NCBI GenBank assembly: GCA_963920595.1
Contig: OY986947.1
Span: forward strand, 6,014,001-6,078,000
Reading direction: 5' to 3'
Origin: Eimeria praecox
Taxonomy: Eukaryota
Length of the DNA: 64,000 nucleotides
The position numbers and the translations under genes are program-made. Under the pieces are notes generated by a model. It made no database searches. It saw only the letters and a program-made list of their open reading frames with translations, and was not told the origin of the DNA. Positions 18,030 to 22,815 of this stretch are shown one piece after another. Numbering within the stretch: position 1 is the first letter of the stretch; each line of letters begins with the position of its first letter.

Positions 18030-21000
18030 GGAAATTTTTAAGGAAAACTGGGTTTTGGAGGGGCAAGCTGCTTCCCCAGAAAATTATGTGTTAGGTATTC
18101 ACTGAGGGAGCCCATACTCCTGCGGCACGCCCTTCTTTGTGAGAGCCAACCGCTTTCACGCGTCTTAGAAAGTGCACATTATACGACCATGCAGGGTGTC
18201 CATATACTATATCATCAACATATCAAACCATGCAGATTTTGGAGCATTTCCACGAGATCGCCCGCCACTCCGAGGTTTTCTGTCTCCTCTGTCGGCTACA
18301 TGAAACCCCCAGATTTTTTGGCTAAGACGAATACAGTCGGCACTAATTTCACGTTGCACAATCCATGCTGAACGTTCTGAGATTCCAAGTCTCTGCGTGA
18401 GTACCGTCCTGTTTTCTCGTGCAATGCAGCCAAGGGATCCATATACTAGTGCCTGTACTGTTACCCGATATCCTCGCGCTTCGTAATGCTTTTTGAGGCT
18501 TTGATATTTCTCTTCTTTTTGTAGACGGGCTGCTCCGAGAGAATTCTTCTTGTAGTCCTCAAAGACGACCGCCACATCTACTATTGCCAAGTCTTTGCGC
18601 TTGTCATCTCGAAGAATAATATCAGGCCTTAACAGGGTTTCCATAACCTCAGGGCAGGCGTCGATTTGGAGCTTCTTGCCCCTATTCTTCGCGCTGCTCT
18701 TGATAGCTGTTGCAATCCTCTCCAACGCCTTGTTATGTCGGTCTTTGATCTTGCTATCCATATGATGAGGGCAGTGGTTGAGGACATGCGCTAGGGTTTC
18801 CGGGTCCTCTGTACAGTGGCGACATCGCGATACCTTTGAGACCTTAATCTTCTTCAGGTATGCTCGTGTGGGGAGTTGTGCAGATCGTGCTCTTAAGGCG
18901 AAGATCACCTCGTCCGGCTTCAGACGAGTGGGACCTCTCAAGAAAGCATTACTATCTGCTGTCTGATAGGCCACTGACTTCCCTTGATCTACCTTTTCCT
19001 TCCACACGTCCCGTTGGCACTCCGCCATATGCTGTTTGATACTTTTAATGATATGCTTCTGATCCAATTCGGAGCCATCTGTTCGCTGAACAACATAGCT
19101 CTCGTTGCTTCCAGTCTCGATGCGCGTCTTGCTCATCGATAAGCTTCCTGGAAGCTCTGTCCATAAGCTTCGAACGTCCACCCTTTTGCCTCTCCTCTTC
19201 AGGCAGCCCAAGTCACGCCCGTTGAGATAGGCAATAATCGCTTCCCGGTCGCTCTTGTCACTCTCACGTGTATAGATGAAAGCCTTTTTGATGACTTCCA
19301 ATAGCTGGCCTTCTGCAACCGCTCGAATCACGCTGTCTGAACTGTTGAGCATTTGTACAGCATGACCTATCTGCGTTGCAGTTGCGATCGTGATGAGAGA
19401 AGTACACCCAAGACCACCATGTGAGGTGGGCTGATGAAACATCTCAACGACGGTGCTCTTTGAAAGCTTGAAGGTAGCCTTTAGAGCAGAGCGTATATGA
19501 CGATCGAAGGCAATCAGCTGCTGTCTATAAGGGTAACAATGCCTGAGATGATAGTCAAGACGAGACATCACAAAAGTGCGAATCGCATCTAGTTTCTGCC
19601 AGGGAAGGAGTGCTGACCTCAGGAGCTTGGTAATGTCCTTCTTCGCCTTGCTCATGACTCGAAGGATTTGATTTTGATGCACTGACGATTCCAGCGCATC
19701 CTTGACGCCCAGGTACTTGTACGCCTCCCCTAGCTTGACCACCGGCAACACCGCGTTGTGGAGCTTCAGCTGCACCGGATCGGGTTGTTGTGGCTTTTCT
19801 CCTCGCTTCCATCCCAAAGTAGCACATTTGGACGGGTTGGCCTCTAATCCTGTCCACTGGAGGAAGTCCACCACCACTTGATGAAGTGTAGAAATTCCTG
19901 CTCGAGTACTAGCAACCGTCTTGAGGTCGTCTGCATACGCCATGTGAGAGACCTTCACCGGCGGTCTCCCGTCTGTCGTACGCAGTTCGAGGCCTGGATC
20001 ACAAGCTGCTAATCTCTGCAGGAGAGGCTCAATGGCTAGGTTGAAGAGGATCGGGCTGAGAGGACACCCTTGCTTCACTCCTCGTCGGTTCTCAATTCGA
20101 CCTGTGCAGCCCTCCTTTGTCACTACGCAGAAGCTCGCTCCTTGATAGAGATCCATGATGATCTCACGAACGTGCTTCGGTAGCCGTTGAGCCTTCAAGA
20201 CAACGTGTATGAGCTCGTGGGGAACGGATCCAAATGCATTTTTCAAGTCGTAGTACGTCATGTACAGCGGTTTCGAGCCTCTGCGCGTGGAGTTGAGGAT
20301 GCTTTGGGCAAGAAACAGGTGCTCATGGCACCCATTCACTGGCATGAATCCCTTCTGCGACTTGGAGGCAACCCCGGACTGTGATGCCCAGTCCGTAATC
20401 CTGCTGGCCCACAGTGCTGCATAAAGTTTGTAGATACAGTCCTGTAGATTGATGGGTCGCCAACTCTTCACATCGTTAGGATCGCCCTGCTTGGGAATCA
20501 AAACGGTCACGCTTTCCTTCCACTTCTCTGGAATACGTCGATGCCGAGAGCACGCGTTGTATATCGCGGTCATGGCTGGAACAAGCACCTCTTCAAACCT
20601 CTTGTACACAAAAAACCCTATCCCATCTGGCCCTGCTGCAGACTTAAGGTTGCTCTTTAGCAGCTGAGCACGCACATCCTCTTCTGTGAAGTATAGATCA
20701 ATCGCACACGCTCCACTAGGGGCTGAAGCCAAGGGGTCTAAGAACTCATGAGCAACATCAGAAGTGGAGTCGATTATTTGCTCAGAGTGCTGATCTCTAA
20801 AGTGTGCCTCCAGCTCACTGAGTTGGATGGGACAATCTTGGCTTCTAGGTTGATCTTCGTCAGCTAGTAGTTGCTCCACACACTTCTTTCTGTCTTTCAT
20901 GTAGAGTGCTTGGAGATTTTGTGCTGACTCTTCTTTGAGGATCATGATGAGGCGACGACGCGCAGTTCGTAGATTTCTTTCAAGGGCACGCTTCTTCAGT

Positions 21001-22815: not shown

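Follow-up and report, generated by a model that had tools for sequence, protein, structure and literature searches.

The 64,000-nt window analysed here, taken from Eimeria praecox contig OY986947.1, carries ribosomal DNA in which Rfam places 18S (12890-14685), 5.8S (15108-15261) and an interrupted 28S (15664-23919), all on the plus strand. The interruption is a full-length non-LTR retrotransposon of 4,786 bp (18030..22815) on the minus strand, antisense within the 28S rDNA. It comprises a 202-nt 5′ UTR (22614..22815), a single open reading frame encoding the 1,468-aa protein P0001 (18207..22613, with its ATG at 22613) and a 177-nt 3′ UTR (18030..18206), all on the minus strand. The stop-to-stop frame counts 1,474 codons (18207-22631) and has no internal stop from the ATG. 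A first-pass annotation of the locus had described an uninterrupted 1,468-aa ZnF-RT-CCHC-RLE frame antisense to the rRNA; its coordinates are exact, the frame, the domains and the Rfam 28S boundaries agree with it, and the four motifs that it quoted are all found in P0001.

P0001 starts with an acidic, disordered N-terminus, followed by a C2HC finger (residues 272-297), a helical N-terminal extension (about residues 420-575) and the RT (residues 706-934; Pfam RVT_1, E 5e-32), with YADD at 893. A thumb/linker region separates the RT from a CCHC finger (residues 1264-1281), and the RLE occupies about residues 1290-1440, with RHN at 1292, PD at 1330, D at 1346 and KxxKY at 1366-1370. The catalytic residues are invariant across a 73-row alignment of relatives. 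The makings of an RLE non-LTR retrotransposon, a single ORF with RT, CCHC finger and PD..D..K endonuclease, are present, and Pfam detects no RNase H in P0001. In an AlphaFold model of residues 269-1468 (mean pLDDT 88), the RT-RLE core is matched to R2 structures by Foldseek at E 2e-46 and superposes on 9dou with Z 35.0 and an rmsd of 3.2 Å over 776 residues. The predicted fold matches that of R2Tg and R2Bm from the N-terminal extension through the RLE. Foldseek returned nothing at E≤0.001 for the N-terminal model, and Atlas clusters for the relative P0002 were generic RT clusters only.

The 28S upstream of the insertion (15664..18029, plus strand) ends in helix 69, which bears two compensatory pair changes and is the predicted RT primer. 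Its edge reads GTAACTATGAC(GT) at 18017-18029, the last 28S letters before the insert being GTAACTATGACGT, ending at 18029. The 28S sequence picks up again at 22816 with TTAAGGTAGCC, and this downstream part (22816..23919, plus strand) contains the R2 site. The insertion lies at the base of helix 69, without a poly(A) tail and without a target-site duplication. Two bases in the 5′ strand of the host helix depart from the Rfam consensus, and the GT that follows ...TATGAC re-pairs with both. Because it restores helix 69 pairing with the altered 5′ strand, we assign the GT to the host: it is probably host sequence and not part of the element, which would probably place the insertion within the last helix 69 pairs, with 2 target bases missing, not 4. 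On this assignment the first nick would lie on the strand opposite to the R2 nick and 8 nt upstream of it, at a cost of 2 bases, and an empty host site is predicted to read ...GAC-GT-nn-TTAAGG; were the GT the element's own, the distance would be 10 nt and the loss 4 bases. In either case the element does not occupy the R2 target, which is entered in sense at TTAAGG^TAGCC, as it is antisense and 8-10 nt upstream. Neither does it occupy the Utopia target, its 3′ flank being 28S and not a U2 snRNA gene, and no U2 lies within the window.

Close to the cut, four positions of the host target depart from the sequence usual in eukaryotes. With a search pattern that admitted the host variant, the usual helix 69 was present in 19/19 of the other eukaryotic rDNA stretches listed; neither the variant nor an empty host site was seen among these 19, and no empty site lies in the window. 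The two compensatory changes (18010-18029) affect a nearly universal stem, and one of them is position -22 of the upstream motif read by R2Bm (PMC10499050).

We further found two insertion events of the same family in the window that were absent from the first-pass annotation. The first is a 5′-truncated copy (1..490, minus strand) in the neighbouring rDNA unit, consisting of the last 107 codons and the 3′ UTR. It is 97.6% identical to the full-length element and has one stop; its 5′ side joins 28S at AAATGCC and its 3′ junction lies just beyond the window edge. This copy is the one case in the window of the TPRT signature, 5′ truncation with a kept 3′ end. The two inserted rDNA units differ at 1/1,093 bases of 28S and their elements at 12/490, an excess in the elements that points to two insertions and not to one duplicated unit. 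The second event belongs to an older subfamily (27685..36789, minus strand; 77% identical, frames broken), whose 5′ half has been amplified as a 2,764-bp tandem unit. Its 5′ ends at 28497, 31261, 34025 and 36789 are each joined to AGGTAGCC of 28S. Counting the tandem array as one insertion event, all three events in the window (3/3) are antisense and have 5′ junctions within a dozen bases of one another, with target deletions of about 2, 3-5 and 13 nt.

The edge of the rDNA array (27685-37378) has a composite structure. Each 2,764-bp unit is made up of the 5′ half of the old element, a tRNA and ~450 bp of 28S, the copies being 98-99% identical, and the tandem units are followed by a 28S 3′ piece that is 3.5% diverged from the array copies. 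A rearranged junction of the tandem array is also carried by one public run (X2). The tRNA-Ile(TAT) gene (28553..28627, minus strand) is bracketed by two copies of a 23-bp stretch of 28S, ~55 nt upstream of an old element 5′ end, and repeats at 31317, 34081 and 36845 on the same strand as the old element. The tRNA unit (28498-28640, again at 31262, 34026 and 36790) is well formed, with a leader of ~11 nt and a trailer of 25 nt, and its outer junction, AAATGCC, coincides to the base with the 28S joint of the truncated copy. It could be either a pre-tRNA caught by a template jump at insertion or a tRNA gene able to drive antisense transcription. A 96-bp repeat of the intergenic spacer shares a common core with a related, more diverged 77-bp repeat past the last rDNA piece (2080-4334, 24418-25712, 39767-41406). 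Ordinary genes lie beyond the array, encoding a SET-domain protein (44863-48201, minus strand), a Band 7/prohibitin-like exon (56208-57002, plus strand) and a PAP2 phosphatase (61223-62194, plus strand), so that the element resides on a chromosome.

Relatives of P0001 are spread over the genus. Annotated hypothetical-protein fragments that are 51-92% identical come from E. necatrix, E. mitis, E. maxima, E. praecox, E. brunetti and E. media, in line with the Eimeria-like host that had been suggested from the sequence alone; several of these named fragments sit on contigs of 35-225 kb. Over the RT-RLE region, five unnamed proteins of full length share 64-79% identity with P0001. The closest of them, P0002 (79%), represents a cluster of which 15 members were read, all full length at 1,458 aa and 1-9 residues apart, several of them on contigs (4,872-4,874 bp) of roughly the length of one element. 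The nearest named full-length relatives are oomycete proteins, with 33-38% identity over about 800 aa, many of them with RNase H. Flanks of relatives were recovered neither from IMG/VR nor, by protein, from prokaryote genomes; 377 candidate stretches from JGI metagenomes yielded 4 loci, with no close relative among them and no RNA gene flanking any. One locus, L001, ends without a flank, and no U2 flank is visible for the Utopia-like rows.

Parts of the stretch occur in at least 18 public runs from 14 studies; 5 of these runs carry half or more of its words, and the listing includes no RNA data set. We compared four runs to the element alone, one of which may itself be the source of the window. 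In run X1, 11 contigs pass from the 3′ end of the element into the same variant helix 69 in full agreement, and in run X3 a 2,877-nt contig extends 35 letters past the 3′ junction. The junction thus recurs in an independent run. No young-family 5′ junction with rDNA appeared among 18 of 148 loose ends. Near-identical pieces in run X2 have contig depths of about 2,400-3,000 and roughly 89% variants depths of 45-59, a hint of many copies, though depth is no copy number. Taking the three window events together with the X1 contigs, and setting beside them one variant with another 5′ flank, the element is recurrent at one 28S site.

That variant bears on how strict the targeting is. An unlikely alternative holds that this is a weakly specific Utopia-like element that prefers the 28S site without being confined to it, the rDNA copies being the intact survivors. 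It would account for the ~90%-identical variant, whose 5′ flank in runs X1 and X2 is absent from the window and unlike this 28S flank, and for the fragments on long contigs in draft genomes; weak specificity is also common among Utopia families (PMC4640811). Against it, 3/3 window events share one site and one orientation, the single 3′-end loose-end row shown for X1 (11 contigs) is 28S flank, and, indirectly, the element-sized contigs of the P0002 members are as expected between high-copy flanks.

We favor another reading, which we consider likely: an intact antisense 28S RLE element, a Utopia-related member of the NeSL clade retargeted to helix 69, that is predicted to spread by TPRT after a nick in the rRNA-sense strand. 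We investigated its affinities with two trees. FastTree, run on 121 of 124 rows (3 short rows dropped, R2 not included), places the query clade near an oomycete clade. IQ-TREE was run on 46 hand-picked rows under LG+G4, with no mixture model, and included 13 R2 rows drawn from 121 R2-set proteins, each with one or two fingers; R2A, R5, LIN and spliced-leader NeSL rows lie outside its sample. The 'Utopia' label of tree rows derives from host names and RNase H/domain order, not from a U2 flank. Outgroups were L022 and the distant proteins L002 and L004; we take these labels to be R4 and HERO, L022 being presumably R4-like. The query clade is recovered at 100/100, and at 99/96 with two unnamed sisters; it falls outside the oomycete clade but shares an 18-row clade (97/96) with RNase H-type proteins of oomycetes, and the R2 rows stand apart (100/100). 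An AU test rejects the query grouping with R2 (p 0.0017), also when the two sister proteins are included (1.8e-5). The suggestion of the first-pass annotation that the element resembles NeSL/Utopia more than R2 is thus upheld on both sides, for the 13 R2 rows sampled and for the oomycete Utopia-like proteins of the 46-row tree. By its sequence affinities the element is Utopia-related and, as far as sampled, not R2. As it groups with Utopia-like elements and not with R2, its 28S target was likely taken up independently. Independent acquisition of the R2 hotspot, also proposed at first pass, accordingly stands against the R2 rows sampled and is unproven against the planarian R5/LIN elements, which are missing from the tree. 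The sister lineage (P0008 and P0009, unnamed, from Logan) is 40-41% identical, and would date the target switch.

Similarity scores bear on whether the element might instead be a derivative of R2 lineage A, an inverted or misassembled R2 copy, or a product of host contamination, all of which we regard as very improbable. R2Tg is the best PDB match of the query (226 bits), the R2 nick lies within 8-10 nt of the site, and lineage A is absent from the tree, having been compared by similarity score only. However, an ant Utopia-like protein scores alike against R2Tg (230 bits), a true R2 (L010) reaches 415 bits against R2Bm where the query reaches 104, and the query is 33-38% identical to oomycete proteins compared with 22-25% to R2 structures. 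Misassembly and contamination are further opposed by the recurrence of the junction in run X1, by the presence of the family in six Eimeria annotations and by the continuation of the array into ordinary genes.

The Utopia-related, retargeted element also appears to differ from R2 in how it would read its target. A profile of the R2 Myb domain matches 92/94 R2-set proteins with long N-termini and 0/6 query-clade proteins. The profile is R2-specific: a divergent Myb would escape it, 5/5 Pfam-Myb-bearing relatives (sponge-named or unnamed) are missed too, and Pfam for its part overlooked the Myb of the R2 control. In the would-be Myb region the models contain nothing but long helices, and they align to R2 from chain residues 224-305 onward. 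The query clade is likely without any Myb; since the profile also misses those Myb-bearing relatives, the case falls short of proof.

In the R2 control, L010, the ORF is in sense and follows directly on the canonical 28S site; homologues of L010 supplied the R2 rows. This locus (L010:432-4795) looks like a complete animal R2. Its contig is filed with the assembly of a bacterial endosymbiont, and its protein carries the annotation of a bacterial hypothetical protein; host contamination is the probable source. The outgroup locus L022 (minus strand, 101-3900), from a contig filed as cyanobacterium, is a non-LTR element in sense orientation whose frame spans 1,268 aa. It lies about 25-40 nt downstream of the R2 site and shows a short target duplication. 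Three other insertions lie within 10 nt of the same 28S spot and contain no frame longer than 350 aa: two of ~450 bp (L018:6030-6485 and L020:4325-4779) and one of 1.5 kb (L007, minus strand, about 6035-7578). They are possibly group I introns.

We propose the following course of insertion for the Eimeria element. By extension from R2 biochemistry (PMC10499050), P0001 would bind its own RNA. The RLE would nick the top strand at a point 8 nt, or 10 nt should the GT come from the element, upstream of where R2 nicks, and the freed 3′ end of helix 69 would prime cDNA synthesis at the 3′ end of the element. As the cDNA must begin there, the primed strand would be the rRNA-sense strand; cutting of the strand opposite to that cut by R2 is inferred from the orientation and from where truncation falls. 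The 5′ end would then attach to the target a few bases farther downstream, deleting a small and variable number of target bases. Nicking, priming from a free 3′ end and variable 5′ end-joining are all parts of the R2 model (PMC10499050, PMC11331408). If, as seems likely, the R2-type Myb domain is missing, P0001 would have to recognise its target through its one N-terminal finger together with the RT region and the RLE.

An antisense element, unlike R2, cannot be released from the sense rRNA precursor, and its transcription would need an antisense or internal promoter, for which the structured 5′ UTR is a candidate. Over 195 of its 202 nt the 5′ UTR folds more stably than shuffled sequences (z -4.3), whereas the 3′ UTR does not (z +0.55). 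A long closing stem and a GCAA-loop hairpin of the 5′ UTR are common to the older subfamily, giving two independent sequences only. We considered two further identities for the 5′ UTR. For an HDV-like ribozyme there was no Rfam match in or near it (22600-22960, E≤1), and inspection by eye revealed no convincing pseudoknot. A relic of 28S was hinted at by a low-confidence Rfam alignment, but local alignment to both 28S parts scored about as shuffles did (p 0.28-0.97 in 12 comparisons), and we rejected this origin.

The first-pass annotation named planarian R5 and rotifer R9 as antisense rDNA elements with other sites; we found no paper on the orientation of R5. R9 is a derivative of R2 at another site (PMC5035012). 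The flanks of the planarian elements LIN9_SM, LIN24_SM and LIN26_SM are printed as reverse-complement 28S (PMC4640811, S6 Fig), and our own count from these printed flanks puts the LIN24/26 site ~80 nt upstream of that of the Eimeria element. This raises the alternative that antisense 28S targeting is shared with planarian R5/LIN by descent or transfer, with the site shifted by ~80 nt, which we hold to be quite unlikely. Besides the flanks, membership of the same NeSL clade and the absence of R5/LIN from our tree speak for it. On the other side, no planarian protein is named among the 240 matches listed, most of which are unnamed; the family groups with proteins of oomycetes, which belong to SAR like the host; LIN24/26 are T-tailed and the Eimeria element is tail-less; and in the published tree, as given in PMC4640811, R5/LIN form a cluster of their own (96%) apart from oomycete Utopia (100%).

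Eimeria elements have been catalogued before. Rodriguez and Makalowski (2022) reported 17 Eimeria non-LTR elements auto-classified as 'LINE R2' by MGEScan (PMC9141347); target site, orientation, intactness and phylogeny are not given in the portions of that paper available to us, and its calls probably include the present family. In the available text of three papers on Eimeria genomes (PMC11912684, PMC12102361, PMC12659853) and one on Cystoisospora (PMC11828913), term searches found no such element. The host list for Utopia of Kojima and Jurka (2015) includes no apicomplexan in its accessible part (PMC4640811), and R2 is described as undetected in unicellular organisms (PMC13188248). Our search of the open literature turned up no description of an rDNA-targeting element in Apicomplexa, at this site or of this family; it did not extend to Repbase or to the Fell et al. 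(2025) inventory, either of which may already list the family. Antisense 28S insertion by NeSL-clade elements is thus already known, and the Eimeria site and family appear undescribed in the literature searched. The chances seem to us evenly balanced that this is a hitherto undescribed Eimeria lineage, spread across the genus and still active, which gave up the U2 target of its Utopia ancestors and, lacking a Myb, came by convergence to the R2 hotspot on the opposite strand. It would then read a helix 69 changed at the cut site and constitute the first non-animal rDNA-site-specific RLE element, intact in a phylum nearly free of live transposons.

The element would offer a natural experiment in how RLE elements change targets, with a second lineage almost at the R2 position in 28S that uses the opposite strand and apparently no Myb. 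How R2 adopted 28S from a Utopia-like ancestor has recently been asked (PMC13188248, PMC13580325), and the Eimeria element is an independent case on which such adoption can be tested. It is an intact, apparently recent non-LTR element in Apicomplexa, and raises the issue of how transcription is achieved by an element lying antisense in rDNA. It is also a candidate safe-harbour insertion tool for Eimeria genetics. The helix 69 differences at the putative cut weaken the broader case for gene insertion, and the four bases near the cut at which the host target departs from the usual make use in human cells doubtful.

Altogether, the element combines traits of three known systems. Like Utopia, especially that of oomycetes, it has one ORF with N-terminal finger(s), RT, CCHC and RLE and no detected R2-type Myb; oomycete proteins are its nearest named relatives, and its host belongs to SAR. 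A target deletion at insertion has been proposed for oomycete Utopia, of which an RNase H upstream of the RT is a mark (PMC4640811). The Eimeria element, in contrast, lies in 28S rDNA, antisense, and lacks the RNase H, whereas Utopia targets U2 snRNA genes. With planarian R5/LIN it shares a place among NeSL-clade RLE elements in 28S, antisense in the case of LIN9/24/26, but these differ in the nucleotide site, in their animal host and, for LIN24/26, in their T-tailed 3′ ends. With R2 (R2Bm, R2Tg) it shares the RT-RLE core fold, the 28S neighbourhood, variable 5′ junctions and 5′ truncation. R2, however, inserts in sense after a bottom-strand nick between GG and TAGC, has a Myb domain and owes its release from the rRNA precursor to a 5′ ribozyme, while the Eimeria element is antisense, 8-10 nt upstream, without an R2 Myb match and outside the sampled R2 clade. 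By analogy, it would work like R2 or LIN24 with the strands swapped, and the targets that define R2 and U2-targeting Utopia exclude it from both.
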